Part shown: piece by piece, positions 1 through 47,746 of the stretch
Layout of the letters: every line of letters begins with the position of its first letter
Numbering within the stretch: position 1 is the first letter of the stretch
From: a virus
Lineage: Duplodnaviria; Caudoviricetes
DNA length: 64,000 nucleotides
Virus record (IMG/VR): IMGVR_UViG_3300025011_000016
Direction: 5' to 3' (one strand)
Notes under the pieces: model-generated
The model's database searches: none
What the model was told of the DNA's origin: nothing
Seen by the model: only the letters and a program-made list of their open reading frames with translations
Translations under genes and position numbers: made by a program

Positions 1-429
1 ATAAATACTGAATTATGTAATATAAATACTCTTAAATATTATATGGATAATTTCTTAACATGGCGTAAAACTCATGATATTAAACCTATATTTGCTGAAA
101 AGCAAATAACTTCTTTAGACTTTGGGGGTACTATAGATCTATATTGTGAGTTTGATAATAAGAAAACAATAATTGATTATAAAACAAGTAAAAGTTTTTA
201 TTCATCAATGTTTCTTCAATTAGCAGGTTATACAATGCTTTTAGAGGAGAAAGGTTATATAGTAGAGCAAGTTGGTATTGTATTATTACATGAAACTGAT
301 TATAAAGAAAAGTTTATAAGTCGAGATGAGTTATCAATATATATAGAGAATTTTAAATTAGTAGTGAAGTTATTTCATTCCTGGTTTGATTTAAATGCAG
401 AAATATGGAAACGTAAACTATATGAGTAG
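1..429 (+). CDS. PD-(D/E)XK (RecB/Cas4-like) nuclease, 5'-truncated by window edge
   Basis: Frame is open from base 1. Motifs GGTIDL..IIDYKTS..QLAGY are typical of the RecB-family nuclease fold. Confidence 0.75.
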   Translation: MNTELCNINTLKYYMDNFLTWRKTHDIKPIFAEKQITSLDFGGTIDLYCEFDNKKTIIDYKTSKSFYSSMFLQLAGYTMLLEEKGYIVEQVGIVLLHETDYKEKFISRDELSIYIENFKLVVKLFHSWFDLNAEIWKRKLYE

Positions 430-1627
430 TGAGAAAGCCTATGTGATAATAAATCTCGCTGATGTGCATTTCGGATCTTTACCTGCAAAAGAATTATATG
501 ATCAGTTAAATAAAATTTTCTTAAAGAAGTTGGAAGAACTTCCCATAGTAGATGCCATAATAATTGATGGTGATTTATGTCATTTTAAGTTATCTATGAA
601 TTCACCTCATGCAAAGTATTTAGCACAATTTATTTCTAGAATGATAGAGATTGTAAATAAAAAGAATGTTAAAACTAAGAAGAAAACTAAAATCAGAGTA
701 GTTAAAGGTACTAAATCACATGATGAACTTGATCAGTTAGAAGTATTAGAAGTGTTTGCTAAAAACTCTAAATGTGATTTTAGAGTTATATCAACTGTTG
801 AAGAAGAATATCTTTTTGATGATTTATTAGTGTTATATATACCAGAAGAATATTTGGACAATAAAGATGAATACTATAAGGATTATTTTTCTACTAAGAA
901 TAAATATGATATGATTTTTGGTCATGGTTTAGTGGGAGAAGTAGCTTTTGCCGCTAGTAAACAAGAAGGTGAAACTACTTTAGCTAAAGCTCCTATATTT
1001 AAATCAGATCAATTATTATATATATGTCGCGGAATTGTGTTCTTTGGTCACATTCATAATTCGCAAGTTATTAAAGATAGAATATTCTATGTTGGTTCAT
1101 TTTCCAGATATGCTTTTGGTGAGGAGAATGAAAAAGGCTTTTACATAACAACATACTCACCATCTAATGGTAATTTCTTAAATGAATTTGTCGTTAATAC
1201 ATTAGCAAAGAGATTTGATACTGTAATAATAGATTATGGATCGAGTTTATTTAAGAATTCAGATAATCAACAAATTGAATACTTAACAAGTATAGTTAAT
1301 AATTTAGTTATTGATAATTTAAGATTGATTATTAATATACCAGAAGATTATCCTAATGCTTTATTACTTACTAATATGATACATGAAACCTTTAGTAAAC
1401 AAATGAATATTAAAATCATCATAAACAATAATGCTAAGATGAGACAAAAACGAGAAACTGACGAAAAGATTAATTTGTTATTAACTAGATATGGATTAAT
1501 ATTTGATAAATCCATATCACATGAAGAAAAAATATCTGAATTTATTAAGATCAAATATAATAAAGAAATTTCCGTAGAGAAGATTCGTATGTATCTTTAT
1601 GAGAAGATACTTAAGGAGGCTATATAG
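422..1627 (+). CDS. sbcD: SbcD/Mre11-like metallophosphoesterase nuclease
   Basis: Motifs ADVHFG, IDGDLCH, GTKSHD, GHG and FGHIH. ATG 422 is the likelier start than 395. Confidence 0.85.
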   Translation: MSSEKAYVIINLADVHFGSLPAKELYDQLNKIFLKKLEELPIVDAIIIDGDLCHFKLSMNSPHAKYLAQFISRMIEIVNKKNVKTKKKTKIRVVKGTKSHDELDQLEVLEVFAKNSKCDFRVISTVEEEYLFDDLLVLYIPEEYLDNKDEYYKDYFSTKNKYDMIFGHGLVGEVAFAASKQEGETTLAKAPIFKSDQLLYICRGIVFFGHIHNSQVIKDRIFYVGSFSRYAFGEENEKGFYITTYSPSNGNFLNEFVVNTLAKRFDTVIIDYGSSLFKNSDNQQIEYLTSIVNNLVIDNLRLIINIPEDYPNALLLTNMIHETFSKQMNIKIIINNNAKMRQKRETDEKINLLLTRYGLIFDKSISHEEKISEFIKIKYNKEISVEKIRMYLYEKILKEAI

Positions 1628-1629
1628 TT

Positions 1630-4600
1630 TTGGTTAATAAGAAATTTAAACTATCTATAAATGAGCAACCAAAAAAAATTGCCATCAAATTTGACATTTC
1701 GATTTTGAATTCTATGATCGGGTTTTTATTTAAACAATCAGTGCAAATTAATAGGAAAGCTCTTAATAATATGAAAAAATTATTTGATATTATTGATACA
1801 ACGATATATGAAGGTAATGATAAACTTGAAGCACGACTTAATTTTATAAAAACAGCTTTGGACGCTCGCATAACTAAACAATTCGAAAATGAAAGTATGA
1901 TTATAAATTTCTGTCGCGGTGATACTTATAATAAAGATACTGAAGAAATTATATCAGCAATCGGGGCCTATCGCAGAATAAACTACGAGGAGATAAAATT
2001 TATAAACAAAGCAATCCAAGATAGATTGAAATACTCTTATCTATTAGATATTAAAGATAGAATGTATAATGTTGTAGAGAAAATAGATTCTGGGGATTTT
2101 GAAAGCTTTCAGGATGTTAATGATGAATTAGTTGGACTATGTTCTCACCTATTGAATAAAACCAGAAAAACAAGTGTTCTTGATGATGTGACAACTTTTA
2201 GTTTAGATTCAGAATCATTTGAAACATCGATTACAGATATAGTCAATGCTCTCAGAGATCCATCAAAAAAATATAGGTGGCATTGTAGAGTAATTTACAA
2301 TGATAAACTTCTTTAATTGCGGGAAATCTCTTAGAGCTTCTTAATTGAAGATTGAGTAATCTGCATCCAATATTGTTAATACAACAATAAGGTTCAACGA
2401 CTAGAGTGTAAACTCGTAGATATATGAAATATATCGAAATGGGAAGCATCCTTGATGAAAAAGGTTGATGATATAGTCTTGTATCTTAATGTAAATTAAG
2501 GAAGTTCATAAGAGAACTGTATAGGAGTACATACCTATATGAAAAAACGCACGTATTTTGAAAACAGGCTTGAAAATGCTGAACCAGATACTGGCCCCTG
2601 GCTTTATATCTAAACGATTGTATATGTTTTTAGGCTTACCAGCTTATAAATAAGGTTGGCTCATTGGTAACAATGTGATATAAACTTCTTTAATTGCGGG
2701 GAACTTCTCATAGCTTTATACTAATAAAGATTGGACAATCCGCATCCAATATTCTTATAATAAGAATAAGGTTCAACGACTAGAGTGTAAACTCGTAGAT
2801 ATCGATAATATTGAAATGGGAAGCTCTCTTATTATATAAGAGATGAAGAGATAGTCTGGTATCCTATATTAATATAGGGAAGTTCATTTGAGAACTGTAT
2901 AGATTAATTATCTATATGAACATATCGGGTTTTAAATCAGGTATATTATTGAAAACTGCTAGAGATATAAAAAAGTATAATAAAGGAATTAAACCTAAAA
3001 AAGCAGGTAAAAAACCATGTGTATTATTACTAACACTTGAAAACTCAATTAGTGAATCCGTAGAGAGATTATTTAACATGGTTAGTACTTCTGAGGATAT
3101 TAGGAATTTTACTCCTAAGCAAGTTATTAAGAAATTAAAAGAAGATGGTGAATTAGTATTAACTGATGATGACGATATTGATATTATTATTAAATATTAT
3201 CCAAATAGAAGTATTGATACCTCTGATATATATACTATAGTTGAAGAATTAGCTGATGATGACAAAGAGGTAATAGCTTTAATTTTAGACTATATTAAAA
3301 GAATACGACCTGCTGAAAAAGCTAGTGACGAAAAAGAAGAATTAAAGAATATTACCAATGAATTGAAGAATCTAGCTACAGAATTAGATATACCAGTTAT
3401 TTCAGCCCATCAATATAGGGTGGCTTTATAGAGTGATTTATAAAGAGAACTTTTTTAATTGCAGGAAACTCCTTAGGACTTTATATAATAAAGATTGGAC
3501 AATCTGCATCCAATATTGTTAATACGACAATAAGGTTCAACGACTAGAGTGTGAACTCGTAGATATATAAGTTAATGATATATCGAAATTGAAAGCATCT
3601 AATAAGATGGTGATATAGTCTTGTATCCTATAGAAATATAGGGAAGTTCTTAAGAACTGCATTATATTACGAATAATGTGAAAATCGCAAATGAATAGAG
3701 CTGGAGCAAGTTCAGTTGATGCCGCATTACAAGCTAATAAAGAAGACTTGGCTAAATTTGTAGGTAGAGCCAATGTTGGAAGTGCCTATATTTCATGGGC
3801 CGCATGATGGTAATGTCATGTTGATACTTTTTTAATTGCAGGAAACTCCTTAGGACTTTATATAATAAAGATTGGACAATCTGCATCCAAGATTCTTACA
3901 TAAGAATAAGGTTCAACGACTAGAGTGTGAACTCGTAGATACTTTATGTATCGAAATGGAAAGCAACCTAATTTATAGGTTGAAGAGATAGTCTGGAATC
4001 CTAATGAGAATTAGGGATGTTTGAATAGAACTGGATTATATTACAAGTAATCTGAACATTACGGGGAAGTTTGTATAGAAGCTTCAACATACAGTAATGT
4101 ATGTTTTAAATTTTCTTTAATTGTCGGGGATCTCCTTATAGCTTAAACTACTTTCAATATAGTAATAATGTTTAAGATTGGACAATCCGCATCCAAGTCT
4201 CCCAAAAGAGAAAGGTTCAACGACTAGAGTGTAAACTCGTAGATACATTACGTATCGAAATAAGAAACCCCTTTATATAAAAAATATAGAGGGTGAAGAT
4301 ATAGTCTTGTATCCTAATTAATAATAGGGAAGTTCATAAGAGAACTGTATAAGTTTATGACTTATATGAAAATAACGACTTGAAAACTCAGATTGGGTAT
4401 GTATCATAAACGTCGAGCGTAAGAAAGGAACCGATCAATATTACTTAACCTTTAAAAGAGTTAAGATTCGTTATAGAGATCCAAATGATTTAGGTTATTT
4501 CAATCATCCATTTGATATTCAAAATAGAATGAAGCTTATTGACGACATATATTTAGAAAAATCATTATCTGAAGAAAGTCTAATGAGTGATTTTGAAGGT

Positions 4601-4717
4601 ATTGACGAGAATGTAAATAAAAAAGGTAAACGTAATGCTGTTGAAAGAGACGTTATTGATGATGATGATAAAAATGATTTATTTGACTTCACTAGAGCTA
4701 TTAATAAAACTGCATAA
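1630..4717 (+). CDS. dnaB: DnaB-like replicative helicase, 6 exons / 5 group I introns (~552 aa spliced)
   Basis: Exons 1630-2263, 2550-2644, 2928-3410, 3688-3787, 4064-4070 and 4378-4717 join in frame (1659 nt). Splicing restores RDPS|RILKTG, Walker A GLPA|GFKS, ILDY, SAH|QMNR and GSA|WE|VLENSD. Confidence 0.9.
2264..2549 (+). ncRNA. Group I intron dnaB-I1 (ORF-less)
   Basis: P1 CCAT/GTGG with U-G pair. Core AATTGCGGGAAA, AATCTGCATCC, GTTCAACGACTA, GATATAGTC. Ends in G. Confidence 0.88.
2645..2927 (+). ncRNA. Group I intron dnaB-I2 (in Walker A)
   Basis: P1 CCAGCT/GGTTGG, full core motifs, terminal G before GGT TTT AAA TCA. Confidence 0.9.
3411..3687 (+). ncRNA. Group I intron dnaB-I3
   Basis: Core motifs present and bulged P1. 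Removal gives SAH|QMNR. Confidence 0.88.
3788..4063 (+). ncRNA. Group I intron dnaB-I4
   Basis: P1 GCCT/GGGC and core motifs. Followed by a 7-nt exon. Confidence 0.85.
4071..4377 (+). ncRNA. Group I intron dnaB-I5
   Basis: P1 GAAGT/GCTTC and core motifs. Frame is restored into the 4529..4717 ORF. Confidence 0.85.
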
Positions 4718-4758
4718 AAAAATAAAGAATACACTTAAATGTGTATTCTTTATTTTTT
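4714..4758. terminator. Palindromic bidirectional terminator between convergent genes
   Basis: AAAAAAATAAAGAATACAC-ttaaat-GTGTATTCTTTATTTTTT. Confidence 0.7.
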
Positions 4759-4767
4759 AAGGTTTTA

Positions 4768-5103
4768 TTATAAGTTCATATCAATCCGCTTGAAATTTAA
4801 TGTTAATCTATAACCTTCATTATAATGATCATCTGATTGTTCCAATATACCTAAAGTGACTAAATGTCTAATACCTCTTGAAACAGCGGATTTATGTATA
4901 TTGAGCAATCGACTTATTTTCACTTGGGTTATCTGTTTAAATTTTTTATCGTCTAAAGCAACTATTAGATAAATTAGTATTCGATACTCCGCTTTCGTTA
5001 AATCAACTTCCCCTTCAATAATAGTTTTACAAAAATTAATAATAAAATCATACCCATTATCACATTCCATCATAATAATAACCTCCGTTATTTTATACTG
5101 CAC
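4768..5103 (-). CDS. Winged-helix HTH DNA-binding protein (MarR/RepL-like)
   Basis: LTKAEYRILIYL..ITQVKISRLLNIHKSAVSRGIRHLVTLGIL has an HTH pattern. Confidence 0.7.
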   Translation of the reverse strand: MQYKITEVIIMMECDNGYDFIINFCKTIIEGEVDLTKAEYRILIYLIVALDDKKFKQITQVKISRLLNIHKSAVSRGIRHLVTLGILEQSDDHYNEGYRLTLNFKRIDMNL

Positions 5104-13898: not shown

Positions 13899-16800
13899 AT
13901 GGCTAAATTTACAGATGATCAAATAGAACACATAGAAAGTGACATAGAGAAGATTCAGACTAAGCCTAAATATAATTGGGCTATTATATAGTGATATATA
14001 ATATAAACTTTTTTAATTGACGGAAACTTCCTTAGAGTCTAAACTACTAAATTGATATTTTAGTATATTGATGGCTGAGTGTAATTAACTCAGGTATAGT
14101 AATAATGTTTAGGATTGGATAATCCGCATCCAAGTCTCTTATAATAAGAGAAAGGTTCAACGACTAAATGTAGAGCTCAAGTGAGTGGGTGGAAATCCCT
14201 TAAATCGAAATGGAAAGCATCTTTAATAAAAGATGATGATATAGTCTTATATCCTAATGAAAATTAGGGAAGTTCATAATAGAACTGCACAGCTCAGCAA
14301 ACTGTGTGAAATAATGAATATGTACGTCAGCTATTTAGCACACCTAGGCGCATTACATTTATCTAAAGAGGTAATAAATAATTCTATAGATGAATGTATT
14401 AATCAAAATTCACCAGCTAACGAAATTAATATATATTTAGATGAAGGTGAGAATACTTTACTAGTTGCTGATAATGGTAGAGGAATAGCTTTCGATAAAA
14501 TGGAAATTGTGTGCACTAAATTACAAGCAGGTAGTAAGTTTACCAGAGAGGGTAGTGGTGGAGCTTCTGCTGGAGAAAACGGGTGTGGCATTACGGCCGT
14601 GAATTCGCTGTCGGAACACTTTGAGATAATCTCAACTCGTTATGGTGAAAGGGCTATAATTGAATTTGAATCTGGTAAGTTGGTCAGGTCACCAGTAATT
14701 AAAAAAATCGGTGATAAAACTAAACACGGTACTACAGTAAAATTTAAACCCAATCCATTTTACATGGGTGACGATTGTGATATCCCAACAGATTTATTGA
14801 TTGAATGGATTGAAAAAATAGTTTATTTAATGCCATCAAATATAGAAATATCACTAAGTGTCTCCAGAAAAGGTAAAGAATCTGCAATAAATAAAAAGTA
14901 TCGTAATAAAAATGGTTTAAAGGACTATATTTTGAAATTGTGTAAAAAGCCTATTTTAGATCCAATTCATTTTATGAAATCTTTAAAAATTAAAGAATTT
15001 GATAAAGGTAGAGAGATCGAAAGATTCATTGGATTAGAAACAGCTTTTACTTACAATTCAAATAGTATGGAACCTATTATTGAATCATTTTGTAATTTTG
15101 TGGTCACTGTTGAAGGGGGTATTCACAACGATGCTGTTAAACAAGGTGTTGTCCAATTCTTAGTTAGGAAAACTAAGGAGGGTTTATCTGATAAAGAATC
15201 GAAAAATATTGATATACTACCTATAGACGCTACTCAAGGATTAGTGTTGACATTATACTTAAGTACCGATATGAATATGATGTTTGCATCACAAACGAAA
15301 GAAAAACTTTCTAATAATGCTTTCTTCAAACCACTCAGAAACATGACATTTAATTCATTGGATGAATACTTTAAAAAAGAAGTTAATGATTTAAAGAAGA
15401 TAACAAGTTTTATTAAGACTAATGCTAAAGCAAGAATTGAATCAAACAAAGCTAGAAATGCTGTTATTAAAGGTGAAACTACTTCATTCGAAGAACACAA
15501 AATGAAGAATTTCTCTCCTGCAAATAATTTAGGGAATGATTACAGAGAGTTATTTGTTATAGAAGGTAAATTAGATTGCCTTATTTTCTTTAATTGACGG
15601 GAAACTCCTTAGAACTTCTTAATTGAAGATTGGACAATCCGCAGCCAAGTCTCTTTATATAAGAGAAAGGTTCAACGACTAGAGTATGTAAGCTCGTAGG
15701 TTTATTTATAATCCGAAATGGGAAAACAATAGATTTATTCTATTGAAGAGATAGTCTAATATCCTAATTAACATTAGGGAAGTTCATAAGAGAACTGTAT
15801 AGAGTTATAATCTATATGAATGATTGGATTCAGCAAAGGGTAGTGCAAGGTTAGGTAGGGATACGGATACTCAGGCATTATTTGCAATGCGAGGAGTTCC
15901 ACTTAATAGTTTTAATCTAAAGTTAGATAAAGTTTTATTGAATGATGAATTTAGGGATTTAACTAAAGTATTAAAATGTAATATCGGTGAACGATTTGAT
16001 ATTACAAAACTAAATTATAAAAAAATAATCATACTTACGGATGCGGATTAATTCATAGTCCCATTATGTAGTGATATATAATGTAAACTTCTTTAATTGA
16101 CGGGAAACTCCTTAGAACTTCTTAATTGAAGATTGGACAATCCGCAGCCAAGTCTCTTTATATAAGAGAAAGGTCCAACGACTAATAGTAGGGCTCAAGT
16201 GAGTGGGGTAATAACACCCTTTAAATCGAAAATAGAGGCATCTTTTATAAGATGATGATATAGTCTACACTTTATTGAAAGATAAAGAAAGATAGCATCT
16301 TTACATTATCTAACGAATAATGTTAATATGAATGGATTGATGGTTTGAGAATAGCCTCACTAATTTGTGTATTCTTCTTATGTCATATGCCAGAGATAAT
16401 TAAGCAAGGATATTTATATAAATCAGTATCACCACTATATTTATTAAATGATACTAAGGGTCATTTTATTATTGATAAAAAAGAGTATGTATCAGTTTTT
16501 GAAAAAGCTGTTAGAAATAACATTAAAGTTATTGATCCAGAAACTAATATTGTTTATACTAATAATGAGATGAAAGAGTTACTATTAAAGAATAGGGGAT
16601 ATTTAGAGGAGTTATACCGAGTTAGTAATCATTTTGCAGTTAATCCTTTTATCATTGAATACATCACCATATATGGGGATCAATCAAATTTCATAAATAA
16701 AATGAAAAAGAAATTCCCTGAGTTAACACTTGATGAAGAAAATGTTTTATCTGGTATATATGAAGGAAAATATCAGATTATTATATTGGATAAAATATTC

Positions 16801-33527: not shown

Positions 33528-36500
33528 ATGGCAGTAACACCACCAAAGAAAGTGGTCCCAAATTTATCATTGAAAGAAACATTGCAAGAGAAGGAACAAT
33601 TATATCATGGTAAAGATGATATATTCGGAATGACATTACTTACCAATCCAGGGTATATTAGTGCATCTCGAAACATTATGTTTACTTCTCATTTAAGACA
33701 ATTCGTAAATTTGAATAAACCGGATTTCCCAAAAGTATTAACGAATTATGAAAATCTTGTTGGTAAACATTCAACTGGATATTTCAAACCTAAGAATGAT
33801 TTAATCGTTGTGGATAAGATACCCAAGTTTAATGATATAAATGATGCAAATCATTTATATCTATTATTCTTATATGATAAGAAGACTAATACTTACTCCG
33901 TTATACAGAAAAAGATCGTTGAAGATCTAACAGAGAAGTTTGGTTTTAAATATAAGAATGATCTTATGGATTCTAAATCTATCGGAGATAAAATACAAGG
34001 AGGTAAAACATTATATTCATCCACATCATATGATGAAGATGATAATTATAACTATGGTAGAAATATTAAGTTTATGTATCTACTTGAAAACAATACTATT
34101 GAAGATGCCATAAAGTGCTCTGAATCGTTATCTAAAGAAATGACTTCGACTGAGGTTGAAACTGTAAAGATATCATTCAATGATAATGAAATCATGTGTA
34201 ATCTTTATGGCAACAATGATGAATACAAAGGTTTTCCAGATATTAATGAAAGGGTTAAAGATAAGATCATATGTGCCAAAAGAAGAATTCATAACAATCA
34301 ATTATTATTCGATCTAAAGAAATCAAATCTACGTAAGATTAATTTTATGTCAGATAACTTATTCTTTATTGATGGAAAGATTGTTGATATTACTATCTAT
34401 TCAAATAAACCTATTGGAGAAATTGAAGATAATATCTTTAATCATCAAATGTTAAAATACCTTAAAATGCAAAAAGAATTTTATACTAAAGTTTTAGATA
34501 GGTGTAAAAAGATAATTGCATCTGGAGCTAAATATTCAAATGAAATAAATTTCTATTATAAGAAAGCTAAGAATATATTAGACGATAATTACATGTACAA
34601 GGAAGAAGATAACAGTGTATTTAGTAATATGGTTATTGAATTCCTTGTTGAACGAGAAGTTCCTTTATCAGTAGGACAGAAGATTACTGGTCGTTACGGT
34701 AATATAATTGCTGTATTTTCTTTAATTGTCGGGGATATCCTTATAGCTTAAACTACTATTAGTAACAAGTTTAAGATTGGACAATTCGCAGCCAAGATTG
34801 TTAATAAACAATAAGGTTCAACGACTAGAGTGAAAACTCGTAGATTCGAAAGAATTGAAATGGGAAAACGATAGATTTTAATCTATTGAAGATATAGTCT
34901 AATATCCTAATGGAAGTTAGGGAAGTTCATAAGAGAACTGCATTATATAATAATGTGAATACTTGAATAAAGGTATTATAAGTCAGATCATACCAGATGA
35001 AGAAATGCCATTTCTTGAAACTGGTGAACGTGTCGATTGTATATTCAACTCCCTAAAATTTTGGGGCTTTATGTAGTGATATATAATGAAAACTACTTTA
35101 ATTGCGGGAAAATTCTTATGGCTTTATAATATAAAGATTGGACAATCCGCAGCCAAGATTGTTAGTAAACAATAAGGTTCAACGACTAGAGTGAGAACTC
35201 GTAGATATTAATATCGAAATTGGTAGAATCTTCTATATAGAAGATTATGAGATAGTCTGGTATCCTATATAACTATAGGGAAGTTCATAAGGGAACTGCA
35301 TTAATTAATAATTACTGTGAACACAACGAGGTGTGATAAATCGCTTAACTGAGAAGGTCCGGGCGATGTAAAACCTTTCTAATTGCGGGGACATTTGTTA
35401 ATTTCAATTTACCAAGTTAATATATTAATGGCTTAGTCCAATCAACTAAGGTATGGTAATAAGAATTGAAATTGAGTAATCCGCAGCCAAGATTGTTAAT
35501 AAACAATAAGGTTCAACGACTAGAGTGAAAACTCGTAGGTTTATTTATAAGCCGAAACGGAAGGCTGGTAATACTTAATATTATTAGAAGATATAGTCTA
35601 AAACATTTGTGAACTCATTTCAGTTATATGAGCAGTCAATAAATTTTATATGTAATCGCATAAGAGAAAGAATTGCGATAACAGAAGATATCTCTATAAA
35701 AGAACAAATGGTATTTAGTATTGTGGGTCATTTTAATCCTGAAGAACAAAGAAGACTTAGGATATATTATGATAAGTTATCAGATAATGGTAAGGATCAT
35801 TTCTTCGATGATATAGTCAAGCAAGGTATCTATATACACATTCCTCCACTTTGGGAAGACGTATGTTTATTCGATAAACTAAGAGCAATATATGCTGAAT
35901 TCACATGGATAAAACCATACTCAGTTTATGTGAATAAATTTGGAAGAAAGATCAAAATGATGAAGGATTTAATTGTCGGAGAAATGTATGTTCTTAAATT
36001 AAATCAAACTTCAAAGAAAGGTTTTTCAGCCAGATCCACTGGTTCGTTATCGAAGAGAGGAATTCCTATTTATTTATATGGGACTATATAGAGTAATCTA
36101 TATTGTGAAAACATTTTAATTGACGGGAAACTCCTTAGAACTTCTTAATTGAAGATTGGACAATCCGCAGCCAAGTCTCTTATAATAAGAGAAAGGTTCA
36201 ACGACTAATTTAGAGCTCAAGTGAGTGGATGAGAATCCTTTTAAATCAAAATAAATGTCATCCGTAAAAATAATAAATAACGGATGGTGATATAGTCTTG
36301 TATCCTATATAGTTATAGGGAAGTTCATAAGAGAACTGCATAGATTAACGACCTATGTGAAAGTATCGGAGAAATCAAATAAAGCAAAAACCCATCAAGA
36401 ATTATATCCACATACGCCTCAATTTGTAGGGGCTGTTGTATAGTAATATATAATGAATCTTTCTTAATTGACGGGAACCTTCTTAGAGCCTTATTTACTA

Positions 36501-37552
36501 AACTATAAGTATTATAGTGGCCAGAATAATTAACTGGGTATAGTAATAAAAATAAGGATTGGATAATCCGCAGCCAAGATTCTTATATAAGAATAAGGTT
36601 CAACGACTATCGAAAGCTTTTAATTAAGTTAGTAGAGTAAGCTCACAAGTCAATAATGGTGAGTTAAAACAGAAAGCTCCTAGAAATAGGATAAAGATAT
36701 AGTCTGCTATCTCAAGGAAACTTGAGGAGTTCATAATGGAACTGCATAAATTGACGATTTATGTGAACAAAAAAGGATACGAATTGGAGATTACTTATAT
36801 AGTTTCCCTGCATAGTAATATGCAGTTTAACAACTCTTTTAATTGACGGGAAACTCCTTAGTGCTTTATAATATAAAGATTGGACAATCCGCAGCCAAGC
36901 CTCTTTATGAGAGAAAGGTTCAACGACTAGAGCATTGCTCATAGATTTACAAGTTAATGGTAAGTCGAAATGGAGAGCTCTATTAATAAACTTTATTAAT
37001 AGATGAAGATATAGTCTGCACCTTAAAGAAATTTAAGGACAATCTTTTGAATTGTAATACATGTTACGAATGTATTTAACATATTGGCAGGAAAATATTA
37101 ACAGTATGATAGGTGTCGATCCAGACATCATAGCTAAACTACATTTATTCTATAGGTCTTCAGTTGTTGGAAGAAGAAACTTAGGTGAAACTTTGGCAAC
37201 TAGACTTAAGTTATTAAATGATTTTAAGTATTCTGCGGAATTCAAAAATAGAAATGTTGAAATTTTACAGGCATATTTAAAAGCTATGGGCGTAAAGATT
37301 GTATTTGAAAATGAGAATATGTATATTGAAATCTATACTGATCAGTTAGAAGAATATTCATCTGAGGGTAGGATATATATATGTACTAAACGTGAGTTTG
37401 AAGCCGTTCAGAGAGAAGCAGAAGTTCGCAGAGAGTTCCGTGAGGATAAGTGCTTAGTGGGAACTCATGCTGAAGTTGAAGCTATTATTCAAGCTCGTAT
37501 CAGCGATCTAAACAAACGAGATACTCATTATGTAATTGACATAAATTTATAA
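33528..37552 (+). CDS. RNA polymerase beta-subunit C-terminal half (probably non-virion RNAP), 7 exons / 6 introns (~755 aa)
   Basis: Exons 33528-34700, 34966-35054, 35329-35345, 35610-36067, 36369-36419, 36777-36791 and 37088-37552 (2268 nt). Restores KITGRYG|NKG, FNSL|GVINR|LNSFQ, GIP|EK and TP|IRIGD|QEN. Confidence 0.88.
34701..34965 (+). ncRNA. Group I intron betaC-I1
   Basis: P1 TACGGT/GCTGTA and core motifs. Confidence 0.88.
35055..35328 (+). ncRNA. Group I intron betaC-I2
   Basis: P1 CCCT/GGGG and core motifs. Confidence 0.88.
35346..35609 (+). ncRNA. Group I intron betaC-I3 (no recognisable P9 domain)
   Basis: P1 ATCGCT/GGCGAT and core motifs. Only 11 nt lie between GATATAGTC and the terminal G. 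Confidence 0.8.
36068..36368 (+). ncRNA. Group I intron betaC-I4
   Basis: P1 TCCT/GGGA and core motifs. Confidence 0.88.
36420..36776 (+). ncRNA. Group I intron betaC-I5
   Basis: P1 GCCT/GGGC and core motifs with a variant P7-P8 region. Confidence 0.85.
36792..37087 (+). ncRNA. Group I intron betaC-I6
   Basis: P1 GGAGAT/GTTTCC and core motifs. Confidence 0.85.
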
Positions 37553-46500: not shown

Positions 46501-47746
46501 ATCTATATGAAAGTATACGTAAAGGACCAAATTCCTTGGGTTTTAATAAATAGGCCCATGATCTTTTAATTGCGGGAAACTCCTTAGTACTTCTATATGA
46601 AGATTGGACAATCCGCAGCCAAAATTGTTGATAAACAATAAGGTTCAACGACTAGAGTATAACTCGTAGATATATAAGTTAATGATATATCGAAATATAG
46701 AACTATCGAAAGATAAAGAGATAGTCTGGTATCCTAATTAACATTAGGGAAGTTCACAGGAGAACTGCATTATTTTACGAATAATGTGAACTCATCGAAT
46801 AAAAATGATAATAATATCTCAGTTAAATATCGCGGCATACACCCGAGTTATCTGGCCCGCGTAGATATTAACGTTTGCGGTGAACGTAGAAATATAATTG
46901 CCGCCTTTTCTTTAATTGACGGGAACTCCCTTATAGCTTAAACTACTAATAGTAACAAGTTTAAGATTGGACAATCCGCAGCCAAGATTGTTATAAAACA
47001 ATAAGGTTCAACGACTAGAGTGATAACTCGTAGATTCGAAAGAATTGAAATGGGAAAACGATAGAGTTATTCTATTGAAGATATAGTCTAATATCCTAAT
47101 ATAAGTTAGGGAAGTTCATAAGAGAACTGCATAGATTGATAAACTGTGTGAATAAATGAATTCAGACCCTAGAAATAAATTTGGGGCAATATCGAGTGAT
47201 CGTTATTGTTAAACTACCTTGACTGCGGGAAACTTCTTAGAGCTTTAAATTGATAAAGATTGAACAATCCGCACCCGATATTCTATATAATAGAATAAAG
47301 TTCAACGACTAGAGCATATTTGCTCGTAGATATAAAGTTATATCGAAATTAGTAGAATCTCTTAGGAGATTATGAGATAGTCTGGTATCCTATATAACTA
47401 TAGGGAAGTTCATAAGAGAACTGTACTATTTAACGAATAGTATGAACACACGGGAACTAGTGGTATTATAACACCATTCTGTAAAACTAGTGGATTATTC
47501 TTCGATGGTGCATTTGAACCAGAAAGTTTTAAATATGATTTTGATAAGGAGATAACTGACTTTAGAAAATCAACTAGTAATAACATAATTGTTGATACTC
47601 ACTATGATAATATATCTGAGTATTTTGAAGGTAGAGAACGATTTAAAGAAATGAATAGTCGAATCAAAATATCAGAGATTGAACGAACTGATAATAGTAA
47701 GTATTATATTAAAATTAAGCTTGCTAGTAATACTGATGATATATAA
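43526..47746 (+). CDS. RNA polymerase beta-subunit N-terminal half (probably non-virion RNAP), 7 exons / 6 introns (~556 aa)
   Basis: Exons 43526-44505, 44792-45023, 46189-46235, 46520-46541, 46798-46881, 47159-47170 and 47453-47746 (1671 nt). Restores KFKYT|LKGPNSLG|NKN..RGIHPSYLARVDINVCG|NSDP|GTSG, matching the RpoB fork-loop region. Confidence 0.85.
44506..44791 (+). ncRNA. Group I intron betaN-I1
   Basis: P1 GGAT/GTCC and core motifs. Confidence 0.87.
45024..46188 (+). mobile_element. Group I intron betaN-I2 with HNH ORF
   Basis: P1 GAT/GTC. Q precedes the ORF, R lies inside the ORF 3' end, and S is at 46107. Confidence 0.85.
45270..46040 (+). CDS. Intron-encoded HNH homing endonuclease
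   Basis: IHRLMAHHF..VHHKDSVNKTN..TQKEN. GTG start. Confidence 0.8.
   Translation: MKINVPLVTNNYSINSEGFIRNDKFNRILTRWKNNRGYEAVQLSCIDGITRSFTIHRLMAHHFIPGFDISDRSIVVHHKDSVNKTNSLDLLTVCTQKENIKYSIEEGNKPNGEKHPMGKFPDELANKIVALLQKEKSTDEIFNILDLEVKKNMRIFINDLRAKRTRLYLTEGLDLKKHVQEKHDINLVKRVIRYMKIGMTVDNIINMIGKGNAGRHERERYSSLIQRIHDGKAWGRLYKDDSSTTNDDYMVIKIKM
46236..46519 (+). ncRNA. Group I intron betaN-I3
   Basis: P1 CCCT/GGGG and core motifs. Confidence 0.87.
46542..46797 (+). ncRNA. Group I intron betaN-I4
   Basis: P1 TGGGT/GCCCA and core motifs. Confidence 0.87.
46882..47158 (+). ncRNA. Group I intron betaN-I5
   Basis: P1 GCGGT/GCCGC and core motifs. Confidence 0.87.
47171..47452 (+). ncRNA. Group I intron betaN-I6
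   Basis: P1 CCCT/GGGG and slightly divergent core (GACTGCGGGAAA, AATCCGCACC). Confidence 0.85.

Follow-up and report, generated by a model that had tools for sequence, protein, structure and literature searches.

A gene for a divergent DnaB-like replicative helicase lies at positions 1630..4717, on the plus strand, of the DNA analysed here, a 64,000-nucleotide (nt) stretch of an uncultured giant-phage assembly (IMG/VR record IMGVR_UViG_3300025011_000016; hereafter the window). The gene is predicted to comprise six exons and five group I introns, with a spliced product of 552 amino acids (aa). The question raised by this locus is whether seven nucleotides, GGGAAGT at 4064-4070, form an exon of their own. 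A preliminary description of the locus had proposed that they do, and the comparisons reported below make it very probable that GGGAAGT, flanked by a group I intron on either side, is a genuine exon of 7 nt, coding for a conserved Trp-Glu-Val (W-E-V) segment.

Position, frame and pairing of the heptamer

The letters were found as the preliminary description had given them: GGGAAGT is preceded by ...CATTACG, the last base of which is G4063, and is followed by TTGTATAGAAGCTTC. Searches with the Rfam group I intron model RF00028 (gathering score 50) returned five matches within the helicase gene, all above threshold, and confirmed a complete group I intron on each side of the heptamer, both of the adjacent matches covering the full model (1-253). 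Intron 4 (3788..4063, plus strand; 276 nt) corresponds to a match of 89.3 bits at 3778-4016 and ends in G4063, and intron 5 (4071..4377, plus strand; 307 nt) to a match of 56.9 bits at 4061-4329, ending in G4377. Like the other three helicase introns, neither contains an open reading frame (ORF). The five helicase introns are mutually related; they formed repeat-finder families with five members and could be aligned over their full length (alignment A1). This alignment placed their true 3' ends 44-48 nt beyond P9, where the Rfam model ends. The tail after P9 consists of two small hairpins followed by a conserved ...TGAAnAnnnCG|, and the five introns end in register. The map followed the rules that the last exon base is a U paired with a guide G and that the last intron base is a G; across the five introns, all 5' splice sites were preceded by U and all 3' ends were G.

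Joining the predicted exons restored a reading frame through the heptamer. Exon 4 (3688..3787, plus strand; 100 nt) ends in phase 1 with ..GGA AGT GCC T, which encodes Gly-Ser-Ala and supplies the first base of a Trp codon. The heptamer (exon 5; 4064..4070, plus strand) adds T|GG GAA GT|, and A4378, the first base of exon 6 (4378..4717, plus strand), completes GTA. Exon 6 thus opens A CTT GAA AAC TCA GAT, the A being followed by LENSDWVCIINVER..., and closes with TAA at 4715-4717. The joined exons 4, 5 and 6 read ..GCC-TGG-GAA-GTA-CTT.., or G-S-A-W-E-V-L-E-N-S-D, with a predicted spliced junction of ..AGTGCCT-GGGAAGT-ACTTGAAAAC. The claim that the seven bases contribute parts of three codons was borne out by this join, which yielded W438, E439 and V440. 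Together, the six exons amount to 1659 nt in a single open frame of 552 aa with no internal stop, and all phases fit.

Base pairing was consistent with a separate 5' splice site for each intron. In the predicted P1 of intron 4, G3784-U3787 pair with G3797-C3800 (GCCU/GGGC), including the wobble U3787·G3797. The predicted P1 of intron 5 consists of G4066-C4085, A4067-U4084, A4068-U4083, G4069-C4082 and U4070·G4081, and is extended by the two intron pairs U4071-A4080 and U4072-A4079. Because G4066-U4070 pair with the guide at G4081-C4085, five of the seven micro-exon bases lie within P1 of intron 5, in agreement with the preliminary description. The intron 5 P1 hairpin was recovered in both the minimum free energy and the centroid folds of 4022-4112 (z -2.7).

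The heptamer is not rare locally: intron 5 has another GGGAAGT (4327-4333), and intron 4 has the similar word GGGATGT (4014-4020). An unbiased mini-exon scan was therefore run over every substring of 3788-4377 with a length of 1 mod 3 and of no more than 40 nt (7,987 candidates, of which 3,041 were stop-free). A profile of 16 intron-less homologs served to score each candidate in place between the flanking exons. GGGAAGT received the top score of all candidates, and 4064-4070 was the single best among the 205 that obeyed the group I rule (G before, U last). The margins of the scan were small (1-3 bits), since only three residues were at stake. Other placements of the micro-exon, either as GGAAGTT at 4065-4071 (W-K-L) or at the intron words 4327-4333 and 4014-4020, are in frame and scored within 0-3 bits of 4064-4070. 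However, the words at 4327 and 4014 are preceded by A and not by G, and would leave one flank without a ribozyme. GGAAGTT would lose the conserved Glu or Asp and convert the U·G wobble of P1 to U-A, and it conflicts with the relatives described below that are interrupted only at the intron-4 site, in which the 3' exon must begin GGGAA. A micro-exon placed at any of these other positions is therefore judged highly improbable. The earlier statement that the heptamer is needed to keep the frame holds for the chosen pair of splice sites, but not beyond it, as a +1 shift of both sites, giving GGAAGTT, is also in frame. What makes GGGAAGT specific is where it lies: it exactly fills the space between two intron ends that were each defined independently.

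Empty and occupied insertion sites in related helicase genes

Scans of IMG/VR and of Joint Genome Institute (JGI) metagenome contigs identified 44 related loci. A megablast search of 1600-4800 against 50,697 phage records gave no match, and there is therefore no close cultured relative among those records. The protein tail encoded by exon 6 matched, by tblastn, the DnaB-like helicase of the Bacillus jumbo phages AR9 and PBS1. The AR9 gene, g007, is uninterrupted, and its product aligned without gaps to the spliced protein across the micro-exon (VGSAWEVLENSD against IGESALMQENTD).

The gene was in one piece in many of the loci, at 42-71% identity. The preliminary description had pointed to intron-less homologs as the place to look for G-S-A-W-E-V-L-E-N-S-D, and the aligned homologs, namely AR9 g007 and genes of uncultured phages such as L007 and L014, read W-[E/D]-[V/I/L] at this position, three residues with no gap; none of them lacked the three residues. 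The Trp was nearly invariant, being found in 15 of the 16 intron-less homologs of alignment A2. At the position of the micro-exon, the homologous proteins read VGSAWEVVENSDW in L007, VGSAWEVIENSDW in L014 and VGTAWEIMENSDW in L008. L007 is the closest homolog (71% aa identity) and has an uninterrupted gene, in which the DNA runs unbroken as GCT TGGGAAGTT GTAGAAAAC. At the nucleotide level, the five larger exons are 63-79% identical to L007, and the micro-exon matches it at 7/7 positions.

This conservation bears on the proposal that the gene is a decaying pseudogene, or that the intron 5 ribozyme is dead, in which case the heptamer would be an exon without function. Intron 5 does score lowest of the five with Rfam (56.9 bits), and 22 introns in 64 kilobases (kb) is an extreme load. 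However, all six exons are intact, in phase and identical to the intact homolog to the extent just given, with no stop or frameshift; the guides still match their exons; intron 5 and its sibling introns have conserved core segments in common; and a second helicase copy was sought in the window and not found. We give very little credence to decay of the gene or loss of the ribozyme.

Related helicase genes were also found in which one of the two sites is occupied. The intron-4 site alone is interrupted, at exactly the window position after ..GC[C/G]T|, in five distinct loci: L013, L022 (the same as L043), L040, L026 and L041. Where the 3' end lay on the contig, the exon resumes with |GGGAAAT.. 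or |GGGAAGTTATGGAAAAC and continues straight into ..ENSD. L026 and L041 carry the alanine codon GCG for GCC, a synonymous change, and a guide of GCGC for GGGC, which constitutes a compensatory change in P1. The intron-5 site alone is interrupted, again at exactly the window position, in L036, which reads TGGGAGAT|intron|TATAGAGAAT, giving W-E-I-I-E-N-S-D. P1 of this intron (GGAGAU/GUCUCC) differs from that in the window (GAAGU/GCUUC) by two compensatory pair changes.

The interruption in L022 was identified by Rfam as a group I intron (64.9 bits), and no Rfam match was obtained, even at E 0.01, for those in L013, L036, L040, L026 and L041. These five have core segments in common with the window introns, and their excision is exact and in frame. 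Homing-endonuclease ORFs with HNH and NUMOD4 domains are present in the introns of L013, at the first site (L013:4767-5420; 218 aa), and of L036, at the second (L036:4779-5549; 257 aa). The window phage, by comparison, fills both sites with small ORF-less introns of its own family. Local alignment scores of introns 4 and 5 were 92-146 against siblings in the same genome and 20-42 against the same-site introns of the relatives. Introns 4 and 5 are therefore likely to reflect either colonisation by the phage's own intron family or homogenisation of intron cores within the genome.

The two matches to the full Rfam model, and the single occupation of each site in relatives, indicate that two complete and separate introns flank the heptamer. 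On this comparative evidence, both positions are real, separately used insertion sites that are both filled in the window phage. The 7-nt exon would thus exist because two known insertion sites, 7 nt apart, are both occupied; the sites fall in a conserved helix of the RecA-like domain, immediately before the ENSD segment. Repeated intron copies might alternatively have led to a false join of two introns during assembly, and the introns are indeed alike over long stretches, introns 3 and 4, for instance, matching at 97% over 73 nt. Each guide nevertheless matches its own upstream exon, and the 7 nt in between are exactly the expected coding bases and restore the frame, which a false join would not yield. 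An assembly artefact has next to no probability on these data.

Weighing of the micro-exon and proposed splicing

Several points weigh against GGGAAGT as an exon. The micro-exon is predicted from DNA sequence, and that sequence comes from an uncultured-phage assembly. Among the 44 related loci, none had both introns and hence a 7-nt exon. Intron 5, the lowest-scoring of the five, is only 6.9 bits over the Rfam threshold, and the GGAAGTT register is in frame and only 3 bits lower than GGGAAGT. The candidate P10 of intron 4, in which GGGA pairs with U3791-C3794 (GGGA/UUUC), is weak, containing two G·U pairs; two of its nucleotides also belong to the P1 strand of intron 5, and the site-4 introns of the relatives (L013/L022) do not conserve the pairing. 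A convincing P10 for intron 5 was sought, and none was found.

Set beside these points, comparison of the DNA and protein sequences establishes the identities and boundaries of the introns, the frame, the conservation of the encoded residues, and the occupation of each site singly in relatives with co-variation in P1. The activity of both ribozymes and the order in which they act are inferred.

Under the proposed mechanism, each intron would fold independently. In intron 4, GCCU (3784-3787) would pair with the guide GGGC, guanosine would open the chain at U3787, and the freed exon 4 would be joined to G4064, after the terminal G4063. In intron 5, GAAGU (4066-4070) would pair with the guide GCUUC, the chain would be opened at U4070, and the upstream exon would be joined to A4378, after G4377. 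Either order of splicing would be chemically possible, because P1 of intron 5 is independent of exon 4 and intron 4 would need little or nothing past its own 3' end. The two reactions are probably sequential rather than simultaneous, since the two active sites would act on bases 7 nt apart.

Removal of 3788-4377 as one unit would leave the heptamer outside the main messenger RNA. This could occur by exon skipping, with exon 4 attacking the 3' site of intron 5, or by excision of a composite intron, and an exon of 7 nt gives little to hold. However, the join of T3787 to A4378 reads TAC TTG AAA ACT CAG ATT GGG TAT GTA TCA TAA, with a stop after 10 codons and the loss of the conserved C-terminal 115 residues, and in all homologs the W-E/D-V/I/L plus ENSD segment is in frame. 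Since the join of exon 4 to exon 6 shifts the frame and leads to an early stop, skipping would be destructive and would not generate an in-frame variant. One-unit removal is therefore considered very unlikely as the main route, and would be a by-product at most. Neither skipping or a composite intron, nor a pseudogene, a shifted micro-exon or misassembly, fits the comparative data as well as a 7-nt exon between two introns.

A further, speculative extension of this mechanism is that the 7-nt spacing forces an obligatory order or hand-over between the introns, with the 3'-exon contacts of intron 4 and P1 of intron 5 competing for G4066-A4067. All five splicing events would then contribute multiplicatively to helicase output. 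If the order went wrong and the 7 nt were skipped, the result would be an N-terminal piece of the helicase, frame-shifted and truncated, that would have its own function, such as dominant-negative action or the timing of replication. We regard this extension as unlikely.

The split gene, its intron family and known parallels

The identification of the gene product as a replicative helicase of the DnaB type was upheld with a small correction: Pfam supports a DnaB-like helicase, but of a divergent family (PF20307) and not classical DnaB. Exon 3 alone matched DnaB_C (PF03796) at 44.6 bits (cut-off 27) and divDNAB (PF20307) at 44 bits (cut-off 26), and L007 matched divDNAB at 99.5 bits over residues 172-505, which include the W-E-V position. 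These profile matches place the protein in PF20307, together with DnaB_C. The Walker A motif of the family is GLP[AGK]GFKS, with F where the canonical GxxxxGK[ST] has G before K, and with K and S invariant. This non-canonical motif fits the Pfam name 'divergent DnaB-like ATPase'.

An AlphaFold model of L007 (predicted local distance difference test, pLDDT, 74) has the two-domain DnaB/gp41 fold, its top Foldseek matches (E 6e-16 to 1e-11; ~500 aligned columns) being chains of T4 gp41 and of DnaB hexamers. In this model, W435-E-V belongs to a short helix (434-440) that immediately precedes a core strand (443-452), in a block with a pLDDT of 83-87. When the PDB was searched by sequence, with either L007 or profile A2 as the query, alignments extended only to the QLNR motif, short of the W-E-V position. 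Because alignment to solved DnaB structures stops at that motif, the W-E-V segment is only tentatively labelled DnaB motif H4, as suggested by the pattern G-S-A-W-E-x-x-E-N-S-D, its position and the model.

The remaining exons and introns, all on the plus strand, follow the same plan. Exon 1 (1630..2263) begins with a TTG start 11 nt downstream of AAGGAGG and ends in phase 1 after ..GATCCAT. Intron 1 (2264..2549; Rfam match 2241-2501, 65.6 bits) is delimited by alignment A1, and its predicted P1 is CCAU/GUGG, the same pair as in intron 3. The P1 placed by Rfam for this intron, with a 5' site after 2250, would break the frame and was discarded in favour of the site after 2263, which keeps it. 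Exon 2 (2550..2644; 95 nt) ends in ..CCAGCT. Intron 2 (2645..2927; match 2635-2879, 73 bits), also delimited by alignment A1, interrupts the Walker A segment, GLPA|GFKS. Exon 3 (2928..3410; 483 nt) encodes the RecA-like core to ..ISAH (Pfam DnaB_C 1.5e-11, divDNAB 1.6e-11). Intron 3 (3411..3687; match 3401-3643, 69.9 bits), delimited in the same way, interrupts H|QMNR, a QLNR-type motif.

Group I introns are abundant beyond the helicase gene. Across the whole window (1-64000), 22 Rfam matches were above threshold, all on the plus strand and clustered in a few genes, an exceptional load for a phage. Further very short candidate exons lie between adjacent introns at 35329-35345, 36776-36791 and 46520-46541 (~17, 16 and 22 nt), placed by eye with the conserved 3' tails and the P1 pairings as guides. 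None seen in the window is shorter than the 7-nt exon.

Identical guides recur behind different introns. Introns 1 and 3 (2260-2290 and 3407-3435) are different introns with common exon bases and the common guide CCAU/GUGG. The GCCU/GGGC of intron 4 (3778) is common to several other introns (13958, 35045 and 36410), as is GGAU/GUCC among those at 16039, 23781 and 44496. Different introns behind identical stretches of 4-5 exon bases, with an identical guide, fit a guide-directed, reverse-splicing-like spread of an ORF-less family. The GAAGU/GCUUC of intron 5 was shared by no other intron within the window. A GGGAAGT-type word forms the conserved post-P9 junction inside introns (4327-4333, ~2877, ~3641 and 4014-4020). 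The intron 5 guide GCUUC could in principle pair with this junction in sibling introns; the match may be a coincidence.

Very short exons have precedents in organelles. Mini-exons of under ~4 codons between mitochondrial group I introns 'occur regularly' (MFannot paper, PMC10352661), and placozoan cox1 contains a 1-nt exon (PMC5436844). As in the mitochondrial cases, a few conserved coding bases are isolated here between two independent group I introns, a second intron having been inserted beside a first, and the exon is recognised because conserved residues would otherwise be missing. Unlike the mitochondrial cases, the host is a bacteriophage replicative helicase gene and not an organelle gene, and both introns are small, lack ORFs and are members of a single family that has increased to many copies in the genome. 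The placozoan exon is supported by RNA sequencing, whereas the phage micro-exon is a prediction from DNA.

Among phages, intron-split genes have been described in AR9-like jumbo phages (bioRxiv 10.1101/2020.12.14.422802), a 'small exon between two introns' has been reported in phage phiNIT1, and exon skipping is known for Twort and SIOphi (both PMC11878797). The window phage resembles AR9/PBS1, the Staphylococcus MarsHill-like jumbo phages (10.1101/2020.12.14.422802), the Bastillevirinae (PMC11878797) and Twort, with its orf142, in carrying group I introns in essential replication and transcription genes of large Firmicutes phages. It differs from AR9, in which the helicase gene g007 is intron-less. 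With five introns in a coding sequence of 1.66 kb, the helicase gene is also more densely interrupted than the cases described for those phages. The portions of the literature available to us state no exon length of the order of 7 nt for multi-intron phage genes, and a non-exhaustive search of them found no phage exon as short as 7 nt. The 7-nt phage exon takes a familiar behaviour of mobile introns to an extreme, rather than representing a new kind of system.

An exon of 7 nt is invisible to gene callers and ORF tracks. With the micro-exon unseen, annotation would show the helicase as broken or in fragments, and other intron-dense phage genomes will be affected in the same way. For RNA biology, the locus offers a compact natural test case in which two predicted group I ribozymes have reaction sites 7 nt apart and five of seven exon bases in P1. 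For the evolution of mobile introns, it shows a conserved helicase helix with two homing sites, spaced by 7 nt, that related phages use separately.

Interruptions at other sites were also observed in related helicase genes. In Bacillus phage vB_BsuM-Goe21 (L002), the helicase is split at 2446-3413, after ~residue 245 and no more than 2 residues from the window intron-2 site in Walker A. The insert of ~970 nt contains an annotated 200-aa ORF, and the helicase pieces are annotated as separate hypothetical proteins. Among L010, L011/L031, L012, L021 and L022, interruptions occur at or near the window intron-3 site (residues ~399-415) and also near residue 284, a site that holds no intron in the window. 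In L013, four transfer RNA genes (L013:5973-6525) lie directly downstream of the helicase gene. Upstream of the helicase gene, the window (1-1627) encodes a PD-(D/E)XK/Cas4-like nuclease fragment (1-429) and an Mre11/SbcD-like metallophosphatase (395-1627), and AR9 also has a metallophosphatase (g002) upstream of its helicase.

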